Assembly (NCBI GenBank): GCA_049997815.1
Contig: JBEKVQ010000002.1
Span: 74,483 to 138,482 of the forward strand
DNA: 64,000 bases
Reading direction: 5' to 3'
Source of the DNA: Minisyncoccia bacterium
GTDB lineage: Bacteria > Patescibacteriota > Minisyncoccia > UBA6257 > GWB1-50-10
The notes beneath the pieces were generated by a model, which had not been told where the DNA came from, did no database searches, and was given only the letters and a program-made list of their open reading frames with translations. This document shows positions 8,276 through 59,899 of the stretch, one piece after another. The position numbers and the translations under genes were made by a program. Positions within the stretch are counted from its first letter, which is position 1. Every line of letters starts with the position of its first letter.

Positions 8276-8290
8276 GCAAGGTAAAAATCG

Positions 8291-11198: not shown

Positions 11199-11234
11199 AT
11201 TGAAGTTTGGGGGAAGCTGCGATATCATTCCTAC

Positions 11235-12326
11235 ATGATTAAGAAGAAGTCCAAGAAGAGACCCCAGAAAAGAAAAACCGTACTGATAACCGGCGGGGCC
11301 GGTTTCATCGGCAGTGCCGTAGTCAGGTATCTGCATAATAAATACCCGAAATATCACTTCATTATTCTGGATGCCCTGACCTATGCCGGAGACATACGTA
11401 ACATTCCGGAATCCATCCGGCAAAGCAAGAATTTTGAGTTCCATTACGGGGATATACGCAATCAAAAACTAGTGGAACATCTGGTTTCCCGATCGGATGT
11501 GGTGCTCCATTTTGCCGCGGAAACGCACGTAGCGCGGTCAATTTTTGATGATATTAATTTCTTCGAAACGGATGTAATCGGGACGCAAAGATTGGCGAGT
11601 GCGGTTCTGAGAAACAAGAAAACGATAGATAGGTTCATCCATATTTCCACAAGCGAGGTCTACGGCACCGCCCTTTCGAGGAAGATGAGTGAGAAGCACC
11701 CCTTAAATCCCCAGAGTCCGTACGCTGCCGCCAAGGCCGGAGCCGACCGGCTGGTCTATTCCTACATGGCCACCTATAAGCTTCCCGCGGTTATCGTGCG
11801 TCCCTTCAATATGTTCGGTCCCAACCAGCATTTGGAGAAACTCATCCCTCGTTTTATCACGAGTTGCATCTTGAATGAGCCCCTCACCATCCATGGTAGC
11901 GGAACCAGCCGAAGAGATTTCACTTATGTGGATGATCTGGCCCGGGCGATAGATATGATCCTGCACGCCCCCGCGAAAAAGGTTGTCGGGCAGGTTTTTA
12001 ATGTTGGTTCGGGCCGTGATGTTTCGGTCGGAGAAATAGCTAATCTGATCATAAAGATGATGAATCGCCGCGATAAGAAGGATTCCTCGGTGCGCTACGG
12101 TTCTTCGCCGCTCAATATCGGTGACCGGCCGGGGCAGGTTTTCCGTCATACCGCGGATACGACGAAGATTTTGAAAGCTCTTTCCTGGAAACCGCGCATG
12201 GCCTTCAAAGAAGGTTTAGCTTTGACCATAGACTGGTATATAAAGAACGAGGGATGGTGGAGAGATAAACTGTGGATGCGTCACGTTCCGGTGGAGACCG
12301 AGAAGGGCAAGACGGAGATGCATTAG
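11235..12326 (+). CDS. NDP-hexose 4,6-dehydratase (RmlB/RfbB-like extended SDR)
   Basis: VLITGGAGFIGSAVVRYL, DALTYAGD, HFAAETHVARSI, YAAAKAGADRLV (YxxxK), KLIPRFI. Confidence 0.85.
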   Translation: MIKKKSKKRPQKRKTVLITGGAGFIGSAVVRYLHNKYPKYHFIILDALTYAGDIRNIPESIRQSKNFEFHYGDIRNQKLVEHLVSRSDVVLHFAAETHVARSIFDDINFFETDVIGTQRLASAVLRNKKTIDRFIHISTSEVYGTALSRKMSEKHPLNPQSPYAAAKAGADRLVYSYMATYKLPAVIVRPFNMFGPNQHLEKLIPRFITSCILNEPLTIHGSGTSRRDFTYVDDLARAIDMILHAPAKKVVGQVFNVGSGRDVSVGEIANLIIKMMNRRDKKDSSVRYGSSPLNIGDRPGQVFRHTADTTKILKALSWKPRMAFKEGLALTIDWYIKNEGWWRDKLWMRHVPVETEKGKTEMH

Positions 12327-13582
12327 GTTTTACCGTGAATCCCCCCATAAAAAATAAAAAATTTACTCCGGGTAAGGACTGGATTTGGTACGCTCCGAAT
12401 ACCAAGGATGCTTTCGGCGAAAACGAAACGCGGGCCGTCACTTTTTCCCTAAGGAGCGGCTGGCTGACCTTGGGTGATACCGCCAAAAAATTCGAGGATA
12501 AGGTAGCGGGAATCTTCGGTAAAAAATACGGGCTCTTTGTGAACTCCGGCTCTTCCGCCAATCTTTTGGCCCTCTGCGCTTTAAAATTTCCCAAGGGTTC
12601 CGAAATAATCACGCCGGCGTGCACCTTTAATACGACCGCGGCTCCGATAATCCAAACGGGTCTCGTTCCCGTATTCGTGGACGTGGACCTCGGAACCTAT
12701 CAGATGGATCCGGAAGAGATGAAAAGGGCCCTATCAAAGAGGACTGTGGCGGTCATGGCGCCGCACCTGATTGGTAATTTCATGGACCTGCCGGCCATCC
12801 GAAATTTTTGCGGGAAACACGGACTGATTTTTATTGAAGACAGTTGCGATACGATCGGCGGCAAATTTAACGGTAAGCCGTCGGGCAAGTGGAGCGATCT
12901 CACGACGACGAGTTTTTATGCTTCCCATCTGATAACGACCGGCGGGGCAGGCGGCATGCTCATGACCAACGATAAAAAACTGAGGGAAAGAGCCAGATTA
13001 TTCCGCGATTGGGGGAGAGGAATCTCGCGACATGATGAGGATATCCGTTCCCGGCTTGCCACTTTCAGGATTGACGGAAAGCCATACGACAGCGCCTTCG
13101 TTTTCGTGGAACTGGGATATAACTTCAAGCCCACTGAAATGCAGGCGGCGTTCGGATTGGAGCAGTTGAAGAGATTGGGTGGGTTTATGAATTTGCGCAG
13201 GAAAAATTTCAAGCGGCTTCGCGCGTTCTTCGAGGGTTTCGGGCAATATTTTATCCTGCCGCAAGAGCTGCCCCGAACGAAGGTCAATTGGCTGGCCTTT
13301 CCGCTCACGATAAAGAAAGGTGCCCCGTTTACGAGAAACGATTTGGTCAGATATCTGGAGCGCCATAAAATCCAGACGAGGCCGCTTTTTTCCGGGAACA
13401 TAACGAGGCAGCCGGCATATGCCAAAACAAAATACAGGAAGATCGGTAGTCTGAAGAACTCTCAATTCATAATGGGGCATTCCTTTCTTATCGGCCTGCA
13501 TCACGGGCTGACCGAAGAGATGCTGGAGTACGTCATGGAAGTGTTTTCCGGGTTTTTGGGGAGGATAGATTCGGGCTCTTAG
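12272..13582 (+). CDS. DegT/DnrJ/EryC1-fold PLP/PMP enzyme, RfbH/DdhC-like (NDP-4-keto-6-deoxyhexose 3-dehydrase-like)
   Basis: GWLTLGDTAKKFEDKVAGIFGKKYGLFVNSGSSANLLAL, GGAGGML; length about that of RfbH; start uncertain (ATG 12272 overlaps upstream gene by 55 nt; GTG at 12335 is an alternative). Confidence 0.75.
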   Translation: MDASRSGGDREGQDGDALGFTVNPPIKNKKFTPGKDWIWYAPNTKDAFGENETRAVTFSLRSGWLTLGDTAKKFEDKVAGIFGKKYGLFVNSGSSANLLALCALKFPKGSEIITPACTFNTTAAPIIQTGLVPVFVDVDLGTYQMDPEEMKRALSKRTVAVMAPHLIGNFMDLPAIRNFCGKHGLIFIEDSCDTIGGKFNGKPSGKWSDLTTTSFYASHLITTGGAGGMLMTNDKKLRERARLFRDWGRGISRHDEDIRSRLATFRIDGKPYDSAFVFVELGYNFKPTEMQAAFGLEQLKRLGGFMNLRRKNFKRLRAFFEGFGQYFILPQELPRTKVNWLAFPLTIKKGAPFTRNDLVRYLERHKIQTRPLFSGNITRQPAYAKTKYRKIGSLKNSQFIMGHSFLIGLHHGLTEEMLEYVMEVFSGFLGRIDSGS

Positions 13583-13584
13583 AT

Positions 13585-13610
13585 CTCCGCCTCCTAGGGC
13601 GGTTTTTTAT
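13585..13610 (+). terminator. Rho-independent terminator
   Basis: ccgcc-tccta-gggcgg + tttttt. Confidence 0.6.
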
Positions 13611-13715
13611 GCAGGCACTATATAATTGACAGATTACTGGTTATGTGCTATCCTTCAATCGTTGGTTACTTGACAGCTAAATAGATTTCTCACGAACTTA
13701 CGCCGGAGGTGCCCA

Positions 13716-14273
13716 GTGATAAACATAACTAGTGCGGATTGGACCGGATATGAGAAGAGTATCGCGATTGCGGTCCTGCAAAAGATCGCATACTGCCAGG
13801 ATAAGGGAAAGGGTCTACCGGTCGAGGTCTTCGAGCCGTTCTGTAGGAGTAAGAAGAACATCTCGACCGAGCTTGTGATTTTCAATGAGAAGGGAGAAAT
13901 TTACCTCGTGAAGCGACCGAGCTTGAATGAGAATCCGAGCGAACCATATCCGGAACAGTATCACAGTCCCGGCGCGACACACGACAAGAACGAGACACTG
14001 GAAAATACCCTTGAACGTCTTCGCCGAAGAGAGGGAGTTAATTTTTCCAGCGTTGAGGGGGTCTACCCTCCTCGTGATTCGCGGGACAAAGAACGGGGGA
14101 GATATCTACTCTGTATTTTCATCGCCGATGCAATCGGTGCTCAGACGAATGCCAAGGGACGTTTCTTCAAACAGGAAGATATCCCGTGGAGTGAGCTTGT
14201 AAGCGTCCATCGGGAGATTATCGTTCCCGCCGCGCTTGAGGCATTCAAGAAACGGAACACAAAGCCCCAATGA
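13716..14273 (+). CDS. Nudix-fold hydrolase with degenerate Nudix box, GDP-mannose mannosyl hydrolase (Gmm/WcaH)-like
   Basis: GTG start preceded by GGAGG SD; PGATHDKNETLENTLERLRRREGV resembles the Gmm box GGRVQKDETLEAAFERLTMAELGL (recalled from memory); paralogue of next gene. Confidence 0.6.
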   Translation: MINITSADWTGYEKSIAIAVLQKIAYCQDKGKGLPVEVFEPFCRSKKNISTELVIFNEKGEIYLVKRPSLNENPSEPYPEQYHSPGATHDKNETLENTLERLRRREGVNFSSVEGVYPPRDSRDKERGRYLLCIFIADAIGAQTNAKGRFFKQEDIPWSELVSVHREIIVPAALEAFKKRNTKPQ

Positions 14274-14299
14274 TGAGGGGCGACGCGTATAAAAAGAAG

Positions 14300-14335
14300 G
14301 GAGCAACCGCAATTGTTGCTCCTTTTTCATTTTTA
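14300..14335 (+). terminator. Rho-independent terminator
   Basis: ggagcaac-cgcaatt-gttgctcc + tttttcattttt. Confidence 0.8.
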
Positions 14336-14438
14336 TCCCAGCCGATAATGGATTGACAGTTCATCAGGAATATTTTATTCTCTAAACAGCCCTGAAACAG
14401 TAGAATATCAGCCACATTTAAGAGAAGGAGTGTGATGA

Positions 14439-14984
14439 ATGAAAACCCTGGGAAACTTCCTAGCCAGCTTGGTCGTCAAGATCTTAGTTTGGTTTCTCAA
14501 GTACCTTCCGTCTCTGGAGGAGAGGTTAACCGTTGCTTTATTGAGGAACTTACATTGGCCCCTCAAACAGTCCATATTCTCGGCCATCGTCAATAAAACC
14601 GTCTCCGTTCCGATTGAGCTCGCCGTGTTCGACGAACAGGGCCGGGTTTTGATGTTCTACCGCCGGGACGATGAGTACGACGGTTACCACATACCGGGAA
14701 CCGTTCTCCGGGACAATGAGGACGTTCCGGCGGCAATCCGACGGCTTCTGAAGAGTGAAGTGGTGGGGGGTAGGGTTACTCAGATTACTTCGCTCGGCTG
14801 GATAGAAATTCCAAAGGGAGATAATCCGACCCGTCACGAGATATCGCTTCTCCACTCGTGCGTGCTCGAAGGCCCGTATAACGGAAAAAGCGGGGAGTTC
14901 TTTTTCCCCGACAAACTTCCGTTCACTACTCTCGATCATCACCACACCTTGATCAAAGAAATAATGAAAAGGTCCGGAAGATAG
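14439..14984 (+). CDS. Nudix-fold hydrolase paralogue (Gmm-like, degenerate Nudix box)
   Basis: AAGGAG SD 8 nt upstream; IPGTVLRDNEDVPAAIRRLLKSEVVG; overall collinear similarity to 13716-14273. Confidence 0.6.
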   Translation: MKTLGNFLASLVVKILVWFLKYLPSLEERLTVALLRNLHWPLKQSIFSAIVNKTVSVPIELAVFDEQGRVLMFYRRDDEYDGYHIPGTVLRDNEDVPAAIRRLLKSEVVGGRVTQITSLGWIEIPKGDNPTRHEISLLHSCVLEGPYNGKSGEFFFPDKLPFTTLDHHHTLIKEIMKRSGR

Positions 14985-15007
14985 AGTTCCCATCCCGATT
15001 TCACAAA

Positions 15008-15045
15008 ACGCCGCGTGAGTTTCATTCACCGGCGTTTTTCCATTT
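15008..15045 (+). terminator. Rho-independent terminator
   Basis: aacgccg-(16 nt loop)-cggcgtt + tttccatttt. Confidence 0.55.
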
Positions 15046-15050
15046 TCACT

Positions 15051-15079
15051 TTGATTTCGGACCGCGAATTCCATATAAT
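15051..15079 (+). promoter_or_regulatory. Sigma70-like promoter TTGATT-17-TATAAT
   Basis: ttgatt 15051-56, tataat 15074-79, ATG at 15095. Confidence 0.5.
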
Positions 15080-15094
15080 ACATCTGTTCACTCA

Positions 15095-16036
15095 ATGAAA
15101 AAAATTCTCATCACCGGCGGCACGGGTTTCGTGGGCTCGAACTTCGTCTATAAATTCCTTAAATTGGGAGACGAGGTTCATCTTCTCGTGAGGCCGGAAG
15201 CGAAATTCTGGAGAATCGAGCCGGTAAAGAGCAGGGTTAAGCTGCACAACGTCGATATCACGAATGATAGCGATGTCGACAAATTCATTTCGGAGCTTAG
15301 GCCAGAGATCATTCTTCACTTCGCCACTTACGGCGCGTATCAATGGAAAGAGCAGGACGTAAAAACGACGATAGACACCAATCTCCTCGGCACCGTCAAT
15401 CTGGTGAACGCCTGTAGTAAAATCGGTTTCGAGTGTTTCATAAACACCGGGAGCACTTCCGAATACGGCGAAAAGAAAGCGCCTATGAAGGAGACCGACC
15501 TGCTCGAGCCGAATAATCTATACGGCACGACTAAGGCCGCCGCAACGCTATATTGCCAGTTTCTAGCAAAAAAATTGGACCTCCCGTTAGCCACGATGCG
15601 CCTCTTCTCGCCCTACGGATATTTCGAAGGCGAGGGTCGCTTGATGCCCGCGCTCGTGCGGGCCGCGCTCTACGGAGAAAAATTCGAAGCCCCATCCCCG
15701 TCGATCGTGAGGGACTTTATCTTCATTGAAGACGTGGTAAGCGCGTATTTGAAAGCTATAGGGAAAATCGGTAGCATTAAGGGGCAGATTTTAAACATCG
15801 CATCCGGCGAAGAACATTCCATCGGGGAAGCTGTGGAAATCGTGGAAAGAATTTCCGGCGCAAAGATCGAGGCGAATTACGGAAAAATTCCGCCGAGGCA
15901 GACGGAACCGAAAAGATGGGTGGCCGACATAACGAAAGCGAAGACGTTGCTTGATTGGAAACCCGAGAATTCTTTATTTGACGGCCTGTCAAAATTCATC
16001 GCGTGGGCAAAAAATAACGAAGTATTCATAAAATAA
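15095..16036 (+). CDS. NAD-dependent epimerase/dehydratase (extended SDR)
   Basis: MKKILITGGTGFVGSNFV, YGTTKAAATLYCQ (YxxxK). Confidence 0.85.
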   Translation: MKKILITGGTGFVGSNFVYKFLKLGDEVHLLVRPEAKFWRIEPVKSRVKLHNVDITNDSDVDKFISELRPEIILHFATYGAYQWKEQDVKTTIDTNLLGTVNLVNACSKIGFECFINTGSTSEYGEKKAPMKETDLLEPNNLYGTTKAAATLYCQFLAKKLDLPLATMRLFSPYGYFEGEGRLMPALVRAALYGEKFEAPSPSIVRDFIFIEDVVSAYLKAIGKIGSIKGQILNIASGEEHSIGEAVEIVERISGAKIEANYGKIPPRQTEPKRWVADITKAKTLLDWKPENSLFDGLSKFIAWAKNNEVFIK

Positions 16037-16857
16037 TGCAAAAGAAACAGATTCTGAATTTGGAAGAGAAAGCCAGGGAATTGCGGAGCCAGATCGTGAG
16101 AATGATCTACAGGGCCAGGGCTTCCCACATCGCCTCCGCCTACTCGGTTCTGGATATCGTGCTTTATTTGTACGGTTTTATTTTGCGCGTAGACCCCAAA
16201 AATCCCAAGAGTCCGGAGAGAGACCGGTTCATTCTGAGTAAGGGATGGGCGGCATCCGCTCTTTACGTTGTCCTGGCCGACAAGGGATTCTTTAAAATGA
16301 AGGAACTGGATTCTTATTGCACGGACGGAAGCAAGTTCATAGGTATTGCCACCATGAGCGGCGTCCCCGGCATAGAGACCACAACCGGCTCGATGGGTCA
16401 TGGTTTACCAGTGGGAGCCGGCATGGCGGTCGCCGGAAAGAAACTCAAGAGCAAGCGGAGGGTGTTCGCGGTCATAAGCGACGGCGAATTGGACGAGGGT
16501 TCTACTTGGGAAGCCATTCTTTTCGCCGGCCACAATCATTTGGATAATCTCGTCATCGTCGTGGACTATAATGGGCTGCAGTCGTTTGGCCGAACCAAAG
16601 ATATTCTGAATCTCGATCCCTTACCGGATAAGTTCAAAGCGTTCGGCTGGGCGGTAACGGAAACGAAGGGGCATGATTTTTCTTTCCTTGCAAGAGCGTT
16701 CGCCAAGCTCCCGCTCCAAAAAGGCAAGCCAACCGCGATAATCGCCCACACCGTAAAGGGCAAGGGCGTGTCTTTCATGGAGAACAAGAATGAATGGCAC
16801 TATAAATACCCCAACGAAGCGGATTTGGCGGCCGCTCTTAAGGAACTCTCAAACTAA
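16036..16857 (+). CDS. Transketolase N-terminal (ThDP-binding) subunit of a split transketolase
   Basis: HGLPVGAGMAVAGKKLKSKRRVFAVISDGELDEGSTWEA (GDG ThDP motif), DPKNPKSPERDRFILSKG. Confidence 0.85.
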   Translation: MQKKQILNLEEKARELRSQIVRMIYRARASHIASAYSVLDIVLYLYGFILRVDPKNPKSPERDRFILSKGWAASALYVVLADKGFFKMKELDSYCTDGSKFIGIATMSGVPGIETTTGSMGHGLPVGAGMAVAGKKLKSKRRVFAVISDGELDEGSTWEAILFAGHNHLDNLVIVVDYNGLQSFGRTKDILNLDPLPDKFKAFGWAVTETKGHDFSFLARAFAKLPLQKGKPTAIIAHTVKGKGVSFMENKNEWHYKYPNEADLAAALKELSN

Positions 16858-16858
16858 C

Positions 16859-17794
16859 ATGCGCGGAACTTTCGTAAAAACATTGATGGGGATGATGGAA
16901 AAAGACGAAAAGATAATCGTCGTTACCGCCGATATGGGGTACGGTACTTTCGAGGCATTGAGGGATAAATTCCCGGACCGGTTCATAAATACGGGCGTCT
17001 CGGAAGCCAATGCGGCCGGCGTTTCGGCTGGCTTGGCCCTCTCCGGCTATACCGTCTTCTTTTACGCGCAGGCGGCCTTCGTGACACTCCGATGTTTTGA
17101 GCAGGTCCGCCTGGATATTGCCTCCAACGATTTGGACGTAAAGCTGGTGGGCACTTCGGCGGGATTTACGCTTTGCCAATACGGCGTGAGCCACTTTGCG
17201 CTTGAGGATGTGGCGGCAATGCGTTCCCTGCCCAATATGACGGTAATGTGCCCGGGAGACATTTACGAAGCGGAGTGGGCGACGAAGGCATCGTGCTCAT
17301 TCAAAGGGCCGGCCTACATAAGAATAGGGCGCAGCAACAGCGGACCGGACGTGTTCATCCATCCGAAGAAACCCAGTTTAAAGATCGGGGAGCCGATCAT
17401 TATAAGGAAAGGGGACAAGGCGACCGTAGTTTCAACAGGGAGCATGCTCTTCTTAGCCAGAGAGGTTGAAAAGGAGCTCCATGCCAAAAAGATAAACGCA
17501 TCCCTGGTTTCTATGCCGACCGTAAAGCCGCTCAACGGCCCGAAGACCCTAAACTTATTCAAGAAGAATAAAGCCGTGTATGTGATGGAAGAACACAGTG
17601 TAATCGGTGGTTTGGGTTCGGCCATTTCCGAACTGGTCACAGATAGAGGACTGCCGTACAAGGTGGTCAGGCTGGGGACCGGAGACAAGTTTTTGCATGT
17701 CGCCGGCTCGCGAGATTATTTGCTCTCGCTCCACGGGCTTACGGCAAAGAAAATCGCCGCCCGTATAGCCCGGGACATAAAGGATAAAAAATAA
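16859..17794 (+). CDS. Transketolase C-terminal (pyrimidine-binding + C-terminal domain) subunit
   Basis: ATG immediately after upstream stop; ITADMGYGTFEALRDKFPDRFINTGVSEANAAGVSAGLALSG. Confidence 0.8.
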   Translation: MRGTFVKTLMGMMEKDEKIIVVTADMGYGTFEALRDKFPDRFINTGVSEANAAGVSAGLALSGYTVFFYAQAAFVTLRCFEQVRLDIASNDLDVKLVGTSAGFTLCQYGVSHFALEDVAAMRSLPNMTVMCPGDIYEAEWATKASCSFKGPAYIRIGRSNSGPDVFIHPKKPSLKIGEPIIIRKGDKATVVSTGSMLFLAREVEKELHAKKINASLVSMPTVKPLNGPKTLNLFKKNKAVYVMEEHSVIGGLGSAISELVTDRGLPYKVVRLGTGDKFLHVAGSRDYLLSLHGLTAKKIAARIARDIKDKK

Positions 17795-17795
17795 C

Positions 17796-18938
17796 ATGAG
17801 TGAAAATCCCTTGGTGAGTATTTGTATAACCTTTTTCGGCGCAGAAAAGTACATCCGCAGGGTTCTTTATAGTTGCCTGAATCAAACATACAGGAACATA
17901 GAAGTAGTGATAGTTGACGATGTAAGCATTGACGGGAGCGAGGAGATAATAAAGGAATATGCCAAACGGGACCCCCGGATAAAATACTTTAGGAATACCG
18001 AAAGAGAGCGTTTCATGCTGGGCCTTGCAAAGGCGTTTAAGCTTGCGAAAGGGGATTTTGTTATGTTCATCGGAGCAGACGATTGGTTGTCGAGGGATTA
18101 CATAGAGAACGGGGTGCGAAGTTTCAAGGAGCACCCCGACGCTGCCGGCATAGTCCCCAGAATGATAGGTTTGTTCGAGGTGGACAGCAATAAATTCAAA
18201 TTCCGCAACGAAATATTCGGAAATTTTTCCCCTCCCAAAATCTATTCTGCCGAATGGTTCGCAAAGCGCGCGTATAAAGGGATAGATGCGAACGTAGGCG
18301 CACTGGCATTAACGAGAAAAGAAGATGCGGTGAGCGCGGCGGATTATTTTATTGAGAATTACTACAATAATCCCTCCGATTCCATCCCCGAAGAATTAAA
18401 AAAATCATTTCTCAGGGGGTTCAGCAGCGACGCGATGTCGTTTTTGGAGATTCTAACCAGATATAAAAGTTTCGTTTTCGACAGTTCGTTGAATCATTTT
18501 CACACAACAGGAGGACAAACCCAGCATTTTGAGGGTATTGAGGGAAGGGAATCGCTATCCGAGATTTTCAAACAGGCTCATTATTATACGATCATATTCA
18601 AATATATTTATGAACCGAGATGGACGAGGTTTTACCGGAAAATGAAGATCTTTCTGGCGTCGGAAGCGCTATCGTCGGTATTTATTTATTTTTTGAGATC
18701 CGGCCTTCGCCCGTATTTCTTGAATATCAGGGGGGGTAGGGAAGCGATTCACGAGGTTTTCAAAGATTTTTCGATCTTTGAAACCGTGACGGTGATTTTA
18801 TATTCGATTTCGTTGGTTATATATCGCTGTTTTAAATTTATCGGGAAGCTGTTTACGGAAGAGAGTGTGTATAAAAAAGAATCCCGCATATTCACGCGGG
18901 AGAACTTTCTGAATTCGGAGGGTCGTTTCGCGGAATGA
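17796..18938 (+). CDS. Glycosyltransferase family 2 (N-terminal GT-A domain) with C-terminal domain of unknown function
   Basis: VSICITFFGAEKYIRRVLYSCLNQTYRNIEVVIVDDVSIDGS. Confidence 0.8.
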   Translation: MSENPLVSICITFFGAEKYIRRVLYSCLNQTYRNIEVVIVDDVSIDGSEEIIKEYAKRDPRIKYFRNTERERFMLGLAKAFKLAKGDFVMFIGADDWLSRDYIENGVRSFKEHPDAAGIVPRMIGLFEVDSNKFKFRNEIFGNFSPPKIYSAEWFAKRAYKGIDANVGALALTRKEDAVSAADYFIENYYNNPSDSIPEELKKSFLRGFSSDAMSFLEILTRYKSFVFDSSLNHFHTTGGQTQHFEGIEGRESLSEIFKQAHYYTIIFKYIYEPRWTRFYRKMKIFLASEALSSVFIYFLRSGLRPYFLNIRGGREAIHEVFKDFSIFETVTVILYSISLVIYRCFKFIGKLFTEESVYKKESRIFTRENFLNSEGRFAE

Positions 18939-18953
18939 CCCTGGCCACTTGGA

Positions 18954-18983
18954 TTGACAGAGATAGACCTTAAATGGTATATT
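18954..18983 (+). promoter_or_regulatory. Promoter TTGACA-18-TGgTATATT for FkbM methyltransferase / RmlC-like operon
   Basis: ttgaca 18954-59; tgg tatatt 18975-83. Confidence 0.55.
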
Positions 18984-19034
18984 TGCGACAGTCATTTAAC
19001 CACGAAGTCAGAAAAACAATAGAGGAAACAAAAA

Positions 19035-20081
19035 ATGGCAACCATTACACACATCATAAATCCAAACCCTCGGCTTACGAAACATCTGGTTTCGAAGAAC
19101 GAATTCGCGGAAGAGCTGTTGACCGTCGTCGACGGGGGTGCAAAGGGTGGATTTGAAGAGTGTTGGAACTGGTATTCCGGACAGATACGGCTCCTCGGTT
19201 TTGAACCGAATGTCGCCGAGTATAAGAAACTAAAAAAGGAGATTGTGAAGGCCGGGCAGCGATATTTCCCGACGGCTCTCTCCGATAAAAAAGGGCGCCG
19301 TGCTCTCAGGATCTATGAACTTGCGGCGGCGACCTCTTTTTTGAGGCCGAATTTCCGATTTCTTAAGCGACTGCCTAGCTCGGAGAGCTTTACACTCAAA
19401 AAGAGAATCTCCGTACCCACCGATAATCTCGATTCGATCGTGCGCTCGATAGGACTCAATGCCGTGGATTTCATAAAGCTCGATACGCAGGGAACGGAAC
19501 TCGAGATCCTGCGGGGAGCGAAAAGAATACTGCGTTCCGCACTCGGAGTGACCGTAGAGTGTGCGTTTAATCCGTTTTATGAAAAAGAAACGACGTTTAC
19601 GGATATCGACCGATTTCTGAAACCGTTGGGTTTCTCGCTCTTCAATTTGCCTACGTTCCGTTATGCGCGGACCGAGCTCTCGGTATATCAGGGGACGAGA
19701 ATTCATCAGAATACCAATCCCCATGGCCAGGTTTGCTGGTGCGAGGCGCTCTACTTCCGAGATGCGGCGGATGAAATTCTTCATGGGAAAGGCACTAAAT
19801 GGAAACGTCCCCGGATTTTGAAACTTGCGAGCCTAATGGAGCTTTTCAGCTTCCAGGATTGTGCGATGGAATTACTTCGCGTCGCTTCTGAGGCAGGACG
19901 ACTCAAGGGCGATGATTTGAAGCAAATGTTCGAATTTTTGGTTCCCGATGTCGATGGGGAAGAATACCCGTACGCCGCGTACGTTGAATATATGAGAGCA
20001 ACGCATGAACTCGATTTCCAGAAACGGACGGAGTTCGCGAAACTAAAACGCTCATCGAAAGGAAGGAGAAATCAATCATGA
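19035..20081 (+). CDS. FkbM-family methyltransferase
   Basis: VVDGGAKGGFEE, IKLDTQGTELEILRGAK (FkbM motifs); GAGGA SD. Confidence 0.75.
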   Translation: MATITHIINPNPRLTKHLVSKNEFAEELLTVVDGGAKGGFEECWNWYSGQIRLLGFEPNVAEYKKLKKEIVKAGQRYFPTALSDKKGRRALRIYELAAATSFLRPNFRFLKRLPSSESFTLKKRISVPTDNLDSIVRSIGLNAVDFIKLDTQGTELEILRGAKRILRSALGVTVECAFNPFYEKETTFTDIDRFLKPLGFSLFNLPTFRYARTELSVYQGTRIHQNTNPHGQVCWCEALYFRDAADEILHGKGTKWKRPRILKLASLMELFSFQDCAMELLRVASEAGRLKGDDLKQMFEFLVPDVDGEEYPYAAYVEYMRATHELDFQKRTEFAKLKRSSKGRRNQS

Positions 20082-20584
20082 GATTCGAGAAAACCAAATT
20101 GGACGGAGTCCTGCTTATCACGCCGGACATCAATGATACCGATTTCCGCGGCCCCTACGTCGAGCCCTACAATAAGAAAGAGTTCGCCGAAAATGGGATA
20201 AATATAGATTTTGTCGTGGACGACTTTTCGATGTCATTCCGGGGAGTATTGCGCGGCCTTCATGGGGATCAGGAAACGTATAAGCTTGTCTCCTGCCGCA
20301 TCGGGCAGCTCTATCTCGTGGTTCTGAATTATGACGAAAATTCGCCGCAGTTCGGTCAGTGGCAGAGTTTCTCCTTAAGCGACACGAATCATCAGCAGGT
20401 GCTTATCCCCCCGAAGTTCGCTAACGGCCACCTGGCGCTTTCCGAACGGGTAATGTTCTCCTACAAACAGTCGGAGTATTATCATCCGGAACGGCAGTTC
20501 TCGGTCAGATTCGATGACTCACGGTTCAACATCTGGTGGCCCATTAAGAACCCCATTCGTTCGCTAAGGGATGAGGGAAAGTAG
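20078..20584 (+). CDS. RmlC-like cupin sugar-nucleotide 3,5-epimerase (dTDP-4-dehydrorhamnose 3,5-epimerase family)
   Basis: ATGA overlap; GVLRGLHGD, QQVLIPPKFANGH, strong SD GGAAGGAG. Confidence 0.8.
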   Translation: MRFEKTKLDGVLLITPDINDTDFRGPYVEPYNKKEFAENGINIDFVVDDFSMSFRGVLRGLHGDQETYKLVSCRIGQLYLVVLNYDENSPQFGQWQSFSLSDTNHQQVLIPPKFANGHLALSERVMFSYKQSEYYHPERQFSVRFDDSRFNIWWPIKNPIRSLRDEGK

Positions 20585-20607
20585 TACGTTCGATCATCAT
20601 CGTGAAA

Positions 20608-20645
20608 GCCCGGAGCTATTGTGTCCGGGCTTTTTCATTTTTATC
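20608..20645 (+). terminator. Rho-independent terminator
   Basis: gcccgga-gctattgtg-tccgggc + tttttcattttt. Confidence 0.8.
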
Positions 20646-20665
20646 GGTGGGTAGCAAGCCGTTCC

Positions 20666-20695
20666 TTGACAGTCCATGTGGATTTTTGTTACTGT
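20666..20695 (+). promoter_or_regulatory. Promoter TTGACA-18-TGtTACTGT
   Basis: ttgaca 20666-71; tg t tactgt 20687-95; strong SD GAAGGAGGAAGG before ATG 20759. Confidence 0.45.
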
Positions 20696-20758
20696 TTCCT
20701 CAGTTTCATTACCAATAAGACACACTAAAACAGAAAGAAAGAAGGAGGAAGGACAGCT

Positions 20759-22567
20759 ATGGAAAACCTAACTGCTGGACGGCCGACGATTGCCGAACTG
20801 GTCGAAAAATCGAAACACATCCGCAACCTTATTCTTAATATGTGCGAGAAGGCGGGAACGGGTCACGTGAATTCGTCCTATTCCTGCATCGAGCTTATGG
20901 TTGCGCTCTATCACGGGGGAATCCTCGAATTCGATCCGAAGAACCCGAAGTGGAACGATCGCGACCGGTTCATTCTGAGTAAAGGACAAGCCAGTCCGGG
21001 ACTGTATGTGGTCCTTGCTGATTTGGGATTCTTCCCGTTGGAGGAACTCGACCATTTTAATCGTGCCGAAGGAATTTTCGGCGTGCATCTCCAAAACACC
21101 GTTCCGGGAGTCGAGATAACCTCCGGTTCATTGGGACACGGTTTCGGGGTAGCGCAGGGAATCGCCCTTGCCGAGAAAATGGACGGGAAACACCACCTTG
21201 TCGTGACACTCCTCGGAGACGGAGAGTGCTACGAAGGGTCCGTGTGGGAAACGGCGATGCTTGCGAGTCATCATCGGCTCAATAATCTGGTCGCCATCGT
21301 CGACCGGAACTACATGTGCGCCATTGATTTTACGGAAGACGTTAATCAGCTTGAACCGCTCGATAAGAAGTGGGAATCGTTTGGATGGAGAGTCGTCCGC
21401 ATTAACGGCCATTCCTTTGAACAGATTTTTGCGGCTTTCGACGGGATTCGTTCTCGGCGTTCGACGCAACCCCTGCTCATCATCGCGGATACCGTGAAAG
21501 GCAAAGGTGTGGGGTTCATGAGTGATTCTCCGTTCTGGCATTCGCAGGCTCCTAAGGGAAAGTTCTTTACCATTGCCCAGCAGGAGCTGAACGAGAATGT
21601 CCGGCCCCAGCGGCAGGTGGAGCATGAGATCGTCAAAAGACCCTCGATGCGGGATGCGTTCTGGAACAAGATTTACGACCTCGCGGTTCTCGACCGAAAT
21701 TTAATCCTCGTCTCGGCGGATCAAAATTCGCCGACCCTCGACGATGATTTCCGGAAGAAGATCCCCCAGCAGTTCCTGAACGTGGGGATCGCCGAGCAGA
21801 ACATGGTTCTCGTTGCTGCCGGACTTGCCATAGGGGGCAAGAAGGCGTTCGCGCATGCTATTGCTCCATTCATCACGCTTCGGTGTTATGAGCATATCAA
21901 AATGCAGCTTTCGGCGATGAAGATACCAGTGACGCTTGTGGGAGTGGGGGCTGGATTCAGTTATCCCGACTCTGGACCCACGCACCACACACTTGAAGAT
22001 CTCTCCATTATGCGGACCCTGCCCAATATGCTGGTTCATAATATCTCGGATGACGTGATGGCTGCGGCTTTCGCTCTAATCGCCTATCGCGAACAGCGTC
22101 CACGCTATATACGTCTGGACCGGGAGGCGTGCCCCAATATTCACCAGGCGGACGCCGATTTTTCGAGTGGTGTAGCACTTCTTCGGGATGGCGACGGTCC
22201 ATGCATCGTTGCTACCGGTAATATGGTTCATCGGGCGCTTGCAGTCGCCGAGAATCTCAGTCAAACGATTCCGGGGATCAGGGTTGTAGAGATATATACC
22301 TTCCCCGTGAATCTCGGCGCGTTCGCTGAAGCGATTGGTCCATCGAAACGGGTAGTGACCCTGGAAGAACACTTCCTACCTGGAGGATTGGGGAGTGCAG
22401 TCACTGAGGCGCTCGCGGATTCCGGTATTTGTGTGCCGGTCAAACGGATTGGTGTGGATCCATCGAAGGGATACTGCTACCGATACGGCGGCCGCGGAAA
22501 CATCCAGTTGCAGTATGGGTTGGACGAAGAGAGCATTATCGGCAAGGTCTCGCTGTTCTTGCAGTAG
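20759..22567 (+). CDS. Fused (N+C) transketolase-family enzyme, paralogue of the split pair at 16036-17794
   Basis: DPKNPKWNDRDRFILSKGQASPGLYVVLADLGFF nearly identical in pattern to the split N subunit; GDGECYEGSVWE ThDP motif; 602 aa. Confidence 0.85.
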   Translation: MENLTAGRPTIAELVEKSKHIRNLILNMCEKAGTGHVNSSYSCIELMVALYHGGILEFDPKNPKWNDRDRFILSKGQASPGLYVVLADLGFFPLEELDHFNRAEGIFGVHLQNTVPGVEITSGSLGHGFGVAQGIALAEKMDGKHHLVVTLLGDGECYEGSVWETAMLASHHRLNNLVAIVDRNYMCAIDFTEDVNQLEPLDKKWESFGWRVVRINGHSFEQIFAAFDGIRSRRSTQPLLIIADTVKGKGVGFMSDSPFWHSQAPKGKFFTIAQQELNENVRPQRQVEHEIVKRPSMRDAFWNKIYDLAVLDRNLILVSADQNSPTLDDDFRKKIPQQFLNVGIAEQNMVLVAAGLAIGGKKAFAHAIAPFITLRCYEHIKMQLSAMKIPVTLVGVGAGFSYPDSGPTHHTLEDLSIMRTLPNMLVHNISDDVMAAAFALIAYREQRPRYIRLDREACPNIHQADADFSSGVALLRDGDGPCIVATGNMVHRALAVAENLSQTIPGIRVVEIYTFPVNLGAFAEAIGPSKRVVTLEEHFLPGGLGSAVTEALADSGICVPVKRIGVDPSKGYCYRYGGRGNIQLQYGLDEESIIGKVSLFLQ

Positions 22568-22590
22568 GCAAAGAGCGGGAGACCATCTTG

Positions 22591-22628
22591 GGCCTCACTT
22601 GGAAACAAGTGAGGCCTTTTTATTTTCA
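22591..22628 (+). terminator. Rho-independent terminator
   Basis: ggcctcacttg-gaaa-caagtgaggcc + ttttttattttc. Confidence 0.85.
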
Positions 22629-22658
22629 TTATTGAAACCGAAATTCTCAGGAATGTAC

Positions 22659-22688
22659 TTGACACAATACCGTAAAATTTAGTATTAT
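22659..22688 (+). promoter_or_regulatory. Promoter TTGACA-18-TATTAT
   Basis: ttgaca 22659-64; tattat 22683-88; GGAGA SD; ATG 22738. Confidence 0.55.
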
Positions 22689-22737
22689 TCTTTCAGTTTA
22701 ATTACCAATTTCACGTGCTTATGTAGGAGAATTGAGA

Positions 22738-23688
22738 ATGAAAACCGAAAGCGTTTTGACCACAGGTGATTTTGCCAGTTTAGTCGGCACAGATATCATA
22801 GATCTTAAAAAATATCTCCAAGGCCGGACATTGGACGGCAATTTTTTATACAGAGAACGCACCGGTACCGAGCGCGATGAAGCGATTCTCTTCGTACTCA
22901 AAAAGATCGGATCCGGCGAACTTCTGGTCGCGAGAGAACAGATGAATAAAGATTACTGGACGAATTATTGGGGGGATATTCTTAAGGATTTCCTCGCAAA
23001 CGGGTGTGATGTGACAAGGCTCACTCCTCAGTACATGCGCCGATATCCTTTCTTTCGGCTCTGCCGGAACTACGTCGATTCCGAAGATGCAACATTCACG
23101 ACACGGTGGTTTGATGTTCTGAAGACCTGTTTGTTCAGTCAATATTTGCGGGAGGCCGATTCGGTTTACGAATTCGGTTGCGGACCGGGGCACAATCTGG
23201 TGCTCCTCGCGAAGCTGTTTCCTGAGAAGAATCTTCTCGGATTCGACTGGGTGCAGCCGTCGGCGGATATTTTGACGGCCATGGCGAACGAACACCATTA
23301 CCGCCTCACGGGAGGAGTTTTCGATATTTACTCGCCTGACGAGAGTATCGCGTTTCCACCCTTAAGTGCCGTGATGACAATCCATGCTTTGGAGCAGATC
23401 GGACCGAACTTCGAGCCGTTCCTGGATTTCCTCCTCAGAAAGTCACCCGCGCTGTGCCTTCACATCGAGCCCATTTACGAGCTCTACGATCCGGACAACC
23501 TGATTGATTGGCTCGCCATGGAGTTTCACCGGAAACGGAAGTATCTTGATGGTTTCCTGACCCGTCTCAAGGAACTCGATGAGAGAGGTGTTATCGAACT
23601 CATAAAGGTGCAACGAGTGCCCTTCGGAAGCACATTTCACGATCCTTACTCGTACATCGTGTGGCGGCCGTTGCGAAAAAAGATCTGA
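22738..23688 (+). CDS. Putative class I SAM-dependent methyltransferase
   Basis: VYEFGCGPGHNLVLLAKLFPEKNLLGFDWV (motif I-like); TTG at 22732 is an alternative start. Confidence 0.65.
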   Translation: MKTESVLTTGDFASLVGTDIIDLKKYLQGRTLDGNFLYRERTGTERDEAILFVLKKIGSGELLVAREQMNKDYWTNYWGDILKDFLANGCDVTRLTPQYMRRYPFFRLCRNYVDSEDATFTTRWFDVLKTCLFSQYLREADSVYEFGCGPGHNLVLLAKLFPEKNLLGFDWVQPSADILTAMANEHHYRLTGGVFDIYSPDESIAFPPLSAVMTIHALEQIGPNFEPFLDFLLRKSPALCLHIEPIYELYDPDNLIDWLAMEFHRKRKYLDGFLTRLKELDERGVIELIKVQRVPFGSTFHDPYSYIVWRPLRKKI

Positions 23689-23725
23689 AATCCGTCGCCT
23701 TTCACAAAACACGTTTCAAAATAAT

Positions 23726-23763
23726 CCCTCCTCTGCCCAATAGCGGAGGGGGATTTTTATTTC
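23726..23763 (+). terminator. Rho-independent terminator (+ strand)
   Basis: ccctcc-(13 nt)-ggaggg + atttttattt. Confidence 0.55.
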
Positions 23764-23775
23764 ACGGATATAAAA

Positions 23776-23800
23776 ATACACCACTGTGTCAGTGGTGTAT
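23776..23800 (-). terminator. Perfect 11-bp hairpin terminator for the minus-strand radical SAM gene
   Basis: atacaccactg-tgt-cagtggtgtat; U-run on minus strand (ttttatatccg). Confidence 0.7.
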
Positions 23801-23825
23801 TGAATTTAAATGGGATTGCAGTGAA

Positions 23826-25340
23826 TTATTTAGCCAGGTGATTTCTTTTCAGGCTAATTGCTGATTCCTCCTTAATCTTGTCTACGGTTGGTTCGCCGAA
23901 TTTTCTGCGGATCATTTCAAGATGAGCAGGGTTAGTGAAGCAGGTTTTCCACGCCCAATCTCTGAACTGGAGAACCTGCTGGCCGGTTAAATATCGGGTC
24001 GGCAAGGGCAGGGTATTTTCGGAATGTTGCGAGTAGCCATCCCAACTTTTTGGAAGCGGCCATCCCTCCTTCACGGCTAGATTGTAGAGCTGTGAACCGG
24101 GATAGGCCATTGCCGAATAAAAATTGGAATATTCGCAATTCAATTCCATCGCCTGAGAGAGCGTTTGTTGCATCGAGTCGTAATCGTCCTCAGGGAGTCC
24201 GAAGATGTAATTAGCAGCGACGTAAATTCCGCCGTCTCTGACTTGTTTTATCACGGAAAAAACATCGCTGTCCTTGAATTCCCCTTTCCTTGCATCATTA
24301 CGCACTCGTTCGCTTGCCGCCTCGATTCCGAAGCAAAGCCAACGGAAGCCGGCCCTTCTTAACTTTTCGATAATTTCGTCTCCGGAGATCGTGTCAACGC
24401 GGGTATAGGCCCAGATATTCAGGTCATATCCCCGTTCGATAATCAAATCGCAGATGCCGTTCACGTGTTTCATGTTCAATACAAACATTTCATCCGCAAA
24501 CTTGATGTTCTTTATTCCGAACTTCTCGACGAGAAAACCTATCTGGTCCACAACGAGCTTTGGGTTCCAAAACCGGTAACTGTTTACTTCGGATTTGATT
24601 CCCATCGCGCCTTCCCCGCTTTTGAAAGGAGCTTGAATACAGCAGAAAGAACAGTGATACGGACAACCCAGGGTCGTGTATATTGAGGCATAAGGTTGCC
24701 GTATCAAATCTCCGTAAGAATGCCATAGGTTCGTCCTGTAGAGGTTCATCGGTAAAAGATCCCAGGCGATCCCATTCATTTCTTCGTTGAGATTTTTTAC
24801 GAGAGGAGCCGGTGAGGTCGTTACCAATTCATCGTCTGATTTGTATATCAGGCCCCTGACTTTCCGGTAATCAGTTTCCCTTACCTTTATCGCTTCAGTC
24901 AGGTCGAGTAAGGTGTAGGGTCCTTCCCCCGTGCAAACAAAGTCAACGCACTCCTCGTTCAACGTTTTTTCCGGAAGAGCGGCCACATGTCCTCCGATCA
25001 TGATGATCTTCAGATTCGGATCGGCTTCTTTGATCGCCCTTGCAATCCTGCCGGCCGAAGGCATTACCTGCGTTGATGCGGAAGGATTATGGCCATAGCA
25101 GACTATTGCAACGAGTTCGGGATTGATATCGGCAACTCGACTTGCAACTTCTTTCGGATCAAGACGTTCGACATATGCATCGATGATGGAGGAAGAAATA
25201 TTTTTCTTTCTCAAGAAGGTTGCTAAAAGTCCTGCCCAAATCGGATTTTCGCAGGCACTTTGTCGGTTTCCCAATTCTTGATAGATTTCAACGTTGTCTC
25301 CCGGAGCTATCATTACCACATCTAATCCCTTGGTCTTCAT
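23826..25340 (-). CDS. Cobalamin (B12)-binding radical SAM enzyme (class B radical SAM, probable methyltransferase)
   Basis: N-terminal B12-binding-like region (VVMIAPGDN...PELVAIVCYGHNPSAS); CPYHCSFC CxxxCxxC cluster. Confidence 0.8.
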   Translation of the reverse strand: MKTKGLDVVMIAPGDNVEIYQELGNRQSACENPIWAGLLATFLRKKNISSSIIDAYVERLDPKEVASRVADINPELVAIVCYGHNPSASTQVMPSAGRIARAIKEADPNLKIIMIGGHVAALPEKTLNEECVDFVCTGEGPYTLLDLTEAIKVRETDYRKVRGLIYKSDDELVTTSPAPLVKNLNEEMNGIAWDLLPMNLYRTNLWHSYGDLIRQPYASIYTTLGCPYHCSFCCIQAPFKSGEGAMGIKSEVNSYRFWNPKLVVDQIGFLVEKFGIKNIKFADEMFVLNMKHVNGICDLIIERGYDLNIWAYTRVDTISGDEIIEKLRRAGFRWLCFGIEAASERVRNDARKGEFKDSDVFSVIKQVRDGGIYVAANYIFGLPEDDYDSMQQTLSQAMELNCEYSNFYSAMAYPGSQLYNLAVKEGWPLPKSWDGYSQHSENTLPLPTRYLTGQQVLQFRDWAWKTCFTNPAHLEMIRRKFGEPTVDKIKEESAISLKRNHLAK

Positions 25341-25470
25341 GACGTCGTCCCCTTATTTGGTTTTTGGTTTCAAGAATCTAGTTCGAGCATAACTATTTTT
25401 TGGGGATTTGGCAAGCCCCTGAGGGTTTCGGCTCTATTCCGAACAAATCGTTCATCACCATTGGGAGGGG

Positions 25471-25498
25471 TTGCACACTTAGGGCGAGAGGGTGTAAT
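25471..25498 (+). promoter_or_regulatory. Putative promoter TTGCAC-16-TGTAAT
   Basis: ttgcac 25471-76; tgtaat 25493-98. Confidence 0.35.
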
Positions 25499-25533
25499 TT
25501 TAATAACATCGTTACAGGAAATATTGTTTCAAA

Positions 25534-40757: not shown

Positions 40758-40760
40758 GGT

Positions 40761-59689: not shown

Positions 59690-59899
59690 ATGCTAGGCCG
59701 CCTCTCAAGGGGATTGAAGAAATTCGGCGATTTCATCTCCACCTTTATCTTGGTGATTTTTTATTTCACGCTCTTCGCCGTCTTCGCCGTTTGCGTAAGG
59801 TTATTCTCGGATTTTTTGGGAAAGAGGCCCAAGAGTTCGAATTTCATCGGAGTTCGGTCCCGCTTCGAGGATTTGGAAAGTTTCAGACATGAGGGATAA
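59690..59899 (+). CDS. SxtJ-like small membrane protein
   Basis: 69 aa, FISTFILVIFYFTLFAVFAVCV; ATG abuts upstream stop. Confidence 0.5.
   Translation: MLGRLSRGLKKFGDFISTFILVIFYFTLFAVFAVCVRLFSDFLGKRPKSSNFIGVRSRFEDLESFRHEG

Follow-up and report, generated by a model that had tools for sequence, protein, structure and literature searches.

The window analysed here, a stretch of 64,000 nucleotides (64 kb) from contig JBEKVQ010000002.1 of a Minisyncoccia bacterium (assembly GCA_049997815.1), carries two systems related to transketolase (TK), placed 3 kb apart on the same, forward strand. The first is a split pair, with a gene at 16036-16857 encoding an N subunit of 273 aa (TK-N) and a gene at 16859-17794 encoding a C subunit of 311 aa (TK-C), and the second is a single fused gene at 20759-22567 encoding a protein of 602 aa. 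With slightly better than even confidence, both are considered to be dedicated sugar-tailoring carboligases dependent on thiamine diphosphate (ThDP), which have a transketolase fold and would make branched or extended deoxysugars, each within its own nucleotide-sugar module, and not to be transketolases of the pentose phosphate pathway. Homology to TK, changes of active-site residues, clade structure and conserved gene neighbourhoods were observed directly.

The three open reading frames (ORFs) were found where the initial annotation had placed them, and the NCBI protein records for the window genes are MGC9603060/61/65. For the C subunit there is also a longer alternative ORF, which starts at 16790 and overlaps the N gene. 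The N subunit, carrying the ThDP-binding PP-domain, matches the Pfam family Transketolase_N (7.5e-41), the C subunit matches Transket_pyr and Transketolase_C, and the fused protein showed all three TK domains in the Pfam search, the junction between its N and C parts being at approximately residues 278-297. Both systems present the three-domain architecture of EC 2.2.1.1 together with the ThDP/Mg motif and the activating glutamate of transketolase. For the split subunits the best matches among solved structures had E values of 2.4e-66 and 8.9e-53, and for the fused protein the value was 1.5e-72 against human TK. In a Foldseek comparison the AlphaFold model of the fused protein reached a TM score of 0.77 to human TK and of about 0.47 to 1-deoxy-D-xylulose-5-phosphate synthase (DXS), which points to the TK domain arrangement; this model (mean pLDDT 69.6; active-site loops of low confidence) served for the distinction between the TK and DXS arrangements only. 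Membership of the DXS family is not supported by model TIGR00204 (162.7-170.5 bits against a cut-off of 466). Nor were the NCBIfam transketolase cut-offs reached, the fused protein scoring 423.9 bits on NF004559 against 488 and the split halves 257 and 165 bits.

Residues were mapped onto human TK (6rjb, in native numbering) and onto the split enzyme of Carboxydothermus hydrogenoformans (6yak/6yaj). The ThDP motif residues D155 and N185 of the human enzyme are kept as D149 and N179 in the split pair (SDG...N) and as D154 and N184 in the fused protein, and the activating E366 as E49 and E346, respectively. Also kept, in the same order, are H37 (H31 and H36), H258 (H255 and H261), R318 (R2 and R298) and R474 (R158 and R455), and at human Q428, which is a histidine in yeast and E. 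coli, both have a histidine (H112 and H409). The remaining positions have changed: H77 is W71 in the split pair and Q77 in the fused protein, H416 is S100 and G397, D424 is Y108 and S405, and H110 is I104 in the split pair, the fused protein keeping it as H110. The equivalent of human S345 aligned inconsistently, G27 or Y28 being the candidates for the split pair and P or S324 for the fused protein, and was not used. In the yeast, E. coli and human enzymes the dihydroxyethyl-ThDP formed from the donor is contacted at its C1-hydroxyl by H77 and H110. H416 (H461 in E. coli) holds the phosphate of the substrate, and D424 (D469 in E. coli) recognises the acceptor aldose by its C2-hydroxyl. Neither system has the full set of catalytic histidines of the N domain (H37, H77, H110, H258), and neither has the histidine and aspartate of the acceptor and phosphate site. 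As judged from the sequences, the cofactor machinery is intact and the substrate site is altered in both. The initial annotation had described two transketolase systems, a name that is not supported in the metabolic sense, given the lost substrate residues and the scores below the NCBIfam cut-offs.

The two systems belong to different clades. In an unrooted, distance-based neighbour-joining tree of the concatenated N and C parts (201 taxa, 100 bootstraps), the split pair is placed in clade A with 84 sequences and the fused gene in clade B with 25, each at 100% bootstrap, and A and B together separate at 82% from 92 canonical TKs, human and C. hydrogenoformans included, which were sampled as hits to the fused query and are hence a biased set. 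The nearest relative of the split N subunit in another organism is 87% identical to it, and the fused gene has an 83% relative that is also fused and a split one at 63%/58% (N/C), other fused forms reaching only about 43%. Between themselves the split and fused proteins share 42% identity in the N part (E 2e-69) and 32% in the C part (E 4e-44), so that they are distant paralogues and not near-identical copies. The motif strings which had been called near-identical (DPKNPK, RDRFILSKG, LYVVLAD and GFF) are truly common to both, but the overall identity is no higher than these values. The description of two paralogous systems differing in gene architecture and transcription units was otherwise borne out, and the suggestion of different sugar substrates fits the separate, fully supported clades, each with its own conserved gene neighbours.

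Human TK and the split TK of C. hydrogenoformans, a biochemically characterised enzyme, both have H, H, H and D at positions 77, 110, 416 and 424. Among the canonical short TKs sampled, all four N-domain histidines were present in 86/90 and the H416/D424 pair in 76/90; in clade A, all C subunits are without both H416 and D424. Tryptophan occupies the H77 position in 118 of the 120 closest homologues of the split N subunit. The combination W71/I104 had been considered as a mark of the whole of clade A, an idea that was dropped when the genome survey limited it to 13/84 members, forming a subclade rich in Patescibacteria and Woesearchaeota (100% bootstrap). Outside Patescibacteria, most members of the clade retain both H77 and H110 (66/84). 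Conclusions on the donor are consequently narrowed to the subclade of the window.

The neighbourhood of clade A was surveyed with one genome per species (201 relatives), the context being taken from the best 80 loci, in all of which the genes are split; the frequencies are lower bounds, owing to short contigs and single-sequence queries. A short-chain dehydrogenase/reductase (SDR) gene is present upstream of TK-N in 61%, an RfbH-like gene in 54%, a 4,6-dehydratase gene in 49% and an NTP-transferase gene in 48%, and a gene for a B12-binding radical S-adenosylmethionine (SAM) enzyme in 0%. The RfbH-like genes carry either an SFYASH or the classical SFYPAHH motif. The typical order is NTP-transferase, 4,6-dehydratase, RfbH-like, SDR, TK-N and TK-C, found in cultured Duganella, Rugamonas, Massilia, Pseudoduganella and Edaphobacter, on an Enterovibrio plasmid, and in many metagenome-assembled genomes (MAGs) of Patescibacteria, Acidobacteriota, Bacteroidota and Verrucomicrobiota and of a Woesearchaeon.

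The same logic is seen in the window, where module A occupies 10149-18938, all genes being on the forward strand. It starts with a Glyco_trans_1_2-type glycosyltransferase (10149-11198), which accompanies clade A on the upstream side in the closest loci too, followed by a nucleoside diphosphate (NDP)-hexose 4,6-dehydratase resembling dTDP-glucose 4,6-dehydratase (11235-12326; 322 bits against a cut-off of 365). The gene at 12272-13582, whose start codon is uncertain, encodes an RfbH/E1-like protein of the type dependent on pyridoxamine phosphate (397.5 bits on RfbH against a cut-off of 423); as its SFYASH motif has a histidine in place of the lysine that binds pyridoxal phosphate in aminotransferases, it is regarded as a 3-dehydrase. 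Next come a NUDIX-fold protein (14439-14984, a family match; a NUDIX gene takes the same slot in the P0144 locus), an SDR epimerase/reductase in a YerF-like position (15095-16036), the split pair, and a family-2 glycosyltransferase (GT2) directly downstream of TK-C (17796-18938). The three closest clade-A loci repeat the order of the window, namely Glyco_trans_1_2, 4,6-dehydratase, RfbH-like, NUDIX (not in every case), SDR, TK-N and TK-C, after which there is a GT2 or a methyltransferase. The ORF at 13716-14273, between the 3-dehydrase and the SDR, gave no family match and may be a second, degenerate Nudix fold.

For module A we infer substrates, donor and product from these residues and neighbours. 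An NDP-hexose would be 4,6-dehydrated by the product of 11235-12326 and 3-deoxygenated by the histidine-type RfbH/E1-like enzyme to NDP-4-keto-3,6-dideoxyhexose. The split heteromer (16036-17794) would then load its ThDP with a two-carbon or short acyl unit and add this unit to the C4 ketone, giving a C-branched tertiary alcohol; the SDR would reduce the sugar and the downstream GT2 would transfer it. The hydrophobic residues W71 and I104 replace the two histidines that hold the C1-hydroxyl of the donor, which suggests, for the subclade of the window, a non-hydroxylated donor such as pyruvate. Module A would in this way follow the logic of yersiniose A synthesis, with a TK-fold enzyme taking the place of a YerE-type enzyme.

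Clade B has other partners. A B12-radical-SAM gene was found within 10 kb of the clade-B TK gene in 20/27 of the viral and 22/29 of the long metagenomic loci, mostly adjacent to it, and it is the signature partner of this clade. RmlC-like, SDR and DegT genes also recur, as do GHMP kinase genes (30-55%) and NTP-transferase genes (about 34%). GmhA and GmhB are both present in 7/25 long clade-B loci, where they complete the set for NDP-heptose activation. In the window, module B (20078-26472) includes an RmlC-like cupin of the 3,5-epimerase family (20078-20584, +), a recurrent partner of clade B, the fused gene, and a 318-aa protein resembling class-I methyltransferases (22732-23688, +; motif EFGCGPG, with no Pfam or NCBIfam match), homologues of which directly follow the clade-B TK genes in several loci (L100, L107, L120, L177 and L197). 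Further on are the B12-binding radical SAM enzyme (23826-25340, -) and a second SDR (SDR_B; 25534-26472, +), again a recurrent neighbour of the clade. The best NCBIfam matches of the radical SAM enzyme are HpnJ (150 bits) and BchE (147 bits), which are linked with skeleton rearrangement or cyclisation, and not P- or C-methylases; all are far below cut-off. The fused enzyme would carry out a related C-C coupling on a different deoxysugar intermediate, with the B12-radical-SAM enzyme, the cupin, the methyltransferase-like protein and the SDR as probable partners.

Taken more widely, the TK-fold enzymes may be a third, widespread and unrecognised class of enzymes forming C-C bonds in surface-glycan sugars, beside the YerE and the pyruvate dehydrogenase E1 (PDH-E1) types, and spanning the Candidate Phyla Radiation (CPR), DPANN, Acidobacteriota, Proteobacteria, Bacteroidota and large viruses. 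Clade A would stand in for YerE in pathways to 3,6-dideoxyhexoses, clade B and the B12-radical-SAM enzyme would jointly build a new branched or extended, possibly heptose-derived, sugar, and the organism of the window would use both. This broader proposal is put forward tentatively and we give it somewhat less than an even chance.

It could be argued that one or both systems are genuine TKs of the pentose phosphate pathway, either housekeeping enzymes or local suppliers of sugar phosphates such as sedoheptulose-7-P, the fused version then providing heptulose-7-phosphate for an NDP-heptose pathway. The three TK domains, the ThDP motif, the activating glutamate and both phosphate-binding arginines would all be expected of such enzymes; the fused protein moreover retains H36, H110, H261 and H409, heptose activation starts from sedoheptulose-7-P, and a small CPR genome might use a single TK for both roles. 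A function upstream of nucleotide activation, for instance in making a heptulose phosphate, concerns chiefly clade B, where the GHMP kinase, NTP-transferase and GmhA/GmhB frequencies given above speak for it. Nevertheless this explanation is thought unlikely. The acceptor-site histidine and aspartate are lost in both systems and two donor-site histidines in the split N subunit, whereas most canonical TKs keep them, and every NCBIfam transketolase cut-off was missed. In addition, clade A lies inside ddh-like operons of free-living Proteobacteria and Acidobacteriota, clade B adjoins the B12-radical-SAM gene and not GmhA, and the two canonical TKs examined as controls have unrelated, non-glycan neighbours. 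A housekeeping TK was rejected on residues, cut-offs, phylogeny and synteny.

Several points nonetheless weigh against the sugar-tailoring carboligases that we favour. The function proposed for both clades is drawn from synteny and residue patterns, and the donor suggested by W71/I104 is valid for the subclade of the window only. Both phosphate-binding arginines (human R318 and R474) are kept, so that a sugar-phosphate substrate could be used, although the same two residues could equally bind the diphosphate of an NDP-sugar. The loci with GmhA and GmhB fit equally well with a role before nucleotide activation, such as on a heptulose phosphate. The tree is of a distance-based, unrooted kind with canonical TKs drawn from the fused query, and the AlphaFold model was left out of the interpretation of the pocket on account of its low-confidence active-site loops. 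Moreover no GHMP kinase, NTP-transferase (nucleotidyltransferase), GmhA, GmhB or E3-type reductase was found within the 64-kb window, a result that tells against local heptose supply by a genuine TK as well. A further possibility is that the ThDP enzymes act on a small molecule, making a C2/C3 acyl or hydroxyalkyl substituent for the glycan or cleaving a ketose, and not on the sugar skeleton. Decorated glycans are to be expected from the many methyltransferases, the carbamoyltransferase and the SGNH/AlgX-like acyltransferase of the locus, and changed acceptor-site residues by themselves do not identify an NDP-sugar. Across phyla, however, clade A is linked to 4,6-dehydratase, 3-dehydrase and SDR genes, which create a reactive 4-keto sugar and so indicate that ketone as the acceptor, as for YerE; and neither clade has an acyl carrier, a CoA-ligase or an acyltransferase as a conserved neighbour. 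We regard the small-molecule role as rather improbable. Least probable by far, and to be given hardly any weight, is a recent duplication within the locus, with later fission or fusion, the two systems then doing the same job as redundant isozymes under different regulation. The short distance, common strand, common motif strings and equal codon usage and third-position GC content (GC3) would agree with it, as would the two split pairs standing in tandem in a Levybacteria contig. It is already contradicted by the phylogeny. Each system is far closer to genes of other organisms than to the other; the active-site substitutions also differ, and so do the partners, an RfbH-type 3-dehydrase without any B12-radical-SAM gene for clade A and the latter gene in about 75% for clade B. 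Tandem duplication was ruled out on the low identity and the separate, fully supported clades.

The GC3 of the three TK-like ORFs is 0.61-0.65, the same as in the flanking genes, and the codon preference of the TK-like genes correlates with that of the pooled locus at 0.89-0.90, equal to the flanking genes. Codon composition therefore bears no trace of recent import, and an old transfer is neither supported nor excluded by it. The idea of acquisition from different sources found no compositional support, and of the comparison proposed with it the codon usage came out the same as in the neighbours, the phylogeny being what differs and what speaks against tandem duplication.

Fusion was found to be rare. 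No clade-B locus was fused among 80 metagenomic (68 split, 12 partial) and 27 viral ones, and fusion is seen in the window gene, in the relative at 83% and in a small group, P0003-P0009; the window gene is hence a rare, derived fusion, and the event of fission or fusion that had been suggested was confirmed as a fusion. It is genuine and no assembly artefact, because the exact protein is on record on 4 contigs from 4 sources and an independent data set yields the fused homologue at 83% identity. Having two systems in one locus is not unique to the window. The contig of a Levybacteria MAG (contig_44256; L014, the same as L006) has two clade-A split pairs in tandem at about 8194-11700, following an NTP-transferase and two SDRs and showing the residue patterns HH/GY and WC/NL, and two TK-like systems are also present in loci L009, L110, L133 and L138.

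The two systems differ in their expression signals too. The stop of the upstream SDR overlaps the start of TK-N in TAATG, the ATG of TK-C starts 1 nt past the TK-N stop, and the ATG of the GT2 (17796) starts one base after the TK-C stop (17794), so the split pair belongs to a tightly packed operon, as had been described. From its sequence signals the fused gene can be read as a transcription unit standing alone. A GGAGG Shine-Dalgarno sequence is indeed present at approximately 20744-20748, about 8-12 nt before its ATG. The promoter proposed for it was supported in part: TTGACA is found at 20666, but the suggested -10 (TACTGT) matches at 3/6 positions and is absent from the list of the promoter scanner. 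Likewise, of the flanking terminators the downstream one is strong (22590-22617, the whole intrinsic element being taken as 22590-22627, +; 12-bp stem with 7 GC pairs and a T-run), and upstream there is a GCCCGGA...TCCGGGC hairpin with a T-run at about 20606-20640, whose 9-nt loop lies outside the criteria of the scanner. The whole upstream region on the + strand (20606-20700), with terminator-like hairpin, TTGACA and weak extended -10, is a reading of the sequence that the scanner did not list. Perfect TTGACA motifs were seen in intergenic gaps at 13626, 14353, 18954, 20666 and 22659, often right after terminator-like hairpins. Promoter-like sites in the locus as a whole show no excess (18 observed against 17.3 expected from shuffling).

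Almost the whole of the 64-kb window is devoted to surface-glycan biosynthesis. Among its products are a Wzy-like polymerase, two flippases of the Wzx type and no fewer than 10 glycosyltransferases, along with many methyltransferases, a priming phosphoglycosyltransferase, an AsnB-type amidotransferase, an ABC-2 exporter, a carbamoyltransferase, a glucuronyl C5-epimerase-like protein and an SGNH/AlgX-like acyltransferase. The genes at 36581-37621, 38832-42086 (-) and 59889-61688 include D-glucuronyl C5-epimerase-like, XrtA/PEP-CTERM-type amidotransferase, EpsB_2-like priming transferase and carbamoyltransferase functions; the matches of the amidotransferase and of the EpsB_2-like protein are both below the cut-offs of the models specific for XrtA/PEP-CTERM. 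This repertoire is unusually elaborate for a genome labelled as CPR (Minisyncoccia), a label taken from the name of the NCBI record.

Some features of individual clade-B loci may also be mentioned. In seven metagenome loci (L118, L128, L133, L138, L139, L172 and L177) GmhA/GmhB-like genes (GNGGSAADAQH; DRDGT...CxCRKP) stand beside the clade-B TK and the B12-radical-SAM gene, together with a GHMP kinase and an NTP-transferase. This proximity to activation genes suggests that part of clade B belongs to NDP-heptose pathways. In locus L001 (5152-6441; P0110), right after a B12-radical-SAM gene, a clade-B TK-N carries a fused cytidylyltransferase-like domain (PF01467); nucleotide activation is thereby physically linked to the TK-like enzyme. 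Pairs resembling PDH-E1 alpha and beta were seen beside clade-B TK-like genes in L007 (14268-16263 and 18302-19827) and L107 (8928-9995), so some loci hold two classes of ThDP enzymes. Clade-B TK-like genes are also found on contigs classed as viral (L090-L116 of IMG/VR, 14-369 kb, as well as L002 and L008), with B12-radical-SAM, RmlC-like, SDR, GHMP kinase and cytidylyltransferase-like neighbours. Some of these contexts are phage-like, with many small ORFs and an intein, and large viruses may encode the synthesis of an unusual sugar.

When plasmid and phage collections were searched with both proteins, mainly generic split or short TKs of 34-48% identity were retrieved. The only informative match was on plasmid pAB510f of Azospirillum sp. 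B510 (NC_013860.1, 53398-55193; L117), a split relative with 45% identity to the fused gene. It is surrounded by genes for a kinase, a NUDIX hydrolase, an NAD(P)-dependent oxidoreductase, an epimerase/dehydratase-family protein, an aldo/keto reductase, a TylF-type methyltransferase and a large glycosyltransferase; a B12-radical-SAM gene is not among them. The NUDIX gene recalls the one in module A. As Azospirillum sp. B510 is a cultured bacterium it offers a convenient experimental system.

Annotation pipelines label these genes as transketolase and thereby inflate the apparent pentose phosphate capacity of genomes, a problem of most consequence for reduced CPR genomes and viral contigs, whose metabolic reconstructions draw on such labels. 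The residue signature separates them from true TKs, since the H416/D424 equivalents are lost and, in two subclades, the H77 position holds W or Q. Enzymes that use ThDP to attack ketones give chiral tertiary alcohols, which are sought after in biocatalysis, and the family provides hundreds of candidates. Some of these are in tractable cultured hosts (Duganella, Massilia, Edaphobacter and Azospirillum B510) together with the operon that would generate the substrate, so that the proposed chemistry is directly testable. As clade B is paired with the B12-radical-SAM enzyme on viral contigs of large size as well, there is a hint that viruses themselves encode the making of unusual sugars.

Compared with canonical TK (human TKT, 6rjb and 3mos; C. 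hydrogenoformans, 6yak/6yaj), the window proteins have the same domains, ThDP motif and activating glutamate, whereas they are without H416 and D424 and additionally without H77 and H110 (split) or H77 (fused), form separate clades and have glycan neighbours. The NDP-6-deoxyheptose pathway of Campylobacter capsules employs GmhA, an HddA-type GHMP kinase, GmhB, an HddC-type transferase, a 4,6-dehydratase, an RmlC-like epimerase and an SDR reductase. This gene set sits beside the TK-like and B12-radical-SAM genes in a subset of clade-B loci; module B of the window, in contrast, has a cupin and an SDR and none of the activation genes. No dedicated TK-like or B12-radical-SAM enzyme is known from heptose pathways.

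The system whose genomic logic is closest to clade A is that of YerE and YerF in yersiniose A synthesis of Yersinia pseudotuberculosis, with the YerE-like ErwE and JanthE. The acceptor of YerE is CDP-4-keto-3,6-dideoxyglucose, to which it couples activated acetaldehyde derived from pyruvate, and the branch is then reduced by YerF (PMC9306805, PMC12247030). In both layouts, within a surface-glycan locus, a ThDP enzyme and a reductase come after the genes that make NDP-glucose and those for its 4,6-dehydration and 3-deoxygenation of the E1 type, and the split pair of the window lies in a glycan locus beside genes for an NDP-4-keto-3,6-dideoxyhexose and a reductase. YerE however belongs to the decarboxylase (acetolactate-synthase-like) ThDP superfamily, whereas the window enzymes have the three-domain transketolase fold, one of them split. 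The TPP_enzyme_N/M/C architecture was not found, apart from a marginal TPP_enzyme_C match of the split N subunit (22.7 bits), and the relation to YerE is one of analogy, not of family homology.

Sugar branching by ThDP enzymes is established for the YerE and PDH-E1 types and only proposed for the TK type (PMC12247030). The PDH-E1-like alpha/beta enzymes (alpha-KADH2, of aldgarose, kibdelomycin (KbDH-alpha/beta) and avilamycin) provide NDP-keto sugars with an acyl branch of two carbons (PMC12247030). They are likewise two-subunit ThDP branching enzymes, but of a different superfamily and described only from actinobacterial secondary metabolism; Transketolase_N gave the fused protein 126.6 bits and E1_dh 36.9, and no E1_dh match was obtained for the split N subunit. 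In our literature search on transketolase with O-antigen, lipopolysaccharide, capsule or radical SAM, no functional study of TK-like genes in surface-glycan loci was found. The sole relevant mention, made in passing, was of two TK subunits among radical-SAM, methyltransferase and glycosyltransferase genes in a recombination region of Campylobacter fetus (PMC5013579). Split-gene TKs have been proposed for hydroxyacetyl branching of keto sugars in miharamycin and amipurimycin synthesis in Streptomyces and are uncharacterised in vitro, and 13 further predicted TK sequences, none characterised, all come from secondary-metabolite clusters of Streptomycetes (PMC12247030). As in the window, the TK-fold N and C genes lie there inside a sugar-tailoring cluster, beside an enzyme making a keto sugar; the likeness is in gene context only, to a family defined by prediction (PMC12247030). 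Unlike the Streptomyces type, clades A and B are found in surface-glycan loci of Patescibacteria, Woesearchaeota, Acidobacteriota, Proteobacteria and Bacteroidota and on viral contigs. The window proteins thus do not fit the canonical TK, DXS, YerE or PDH-E1 types and resemble the predicted TK-type branching enzymes in their context.

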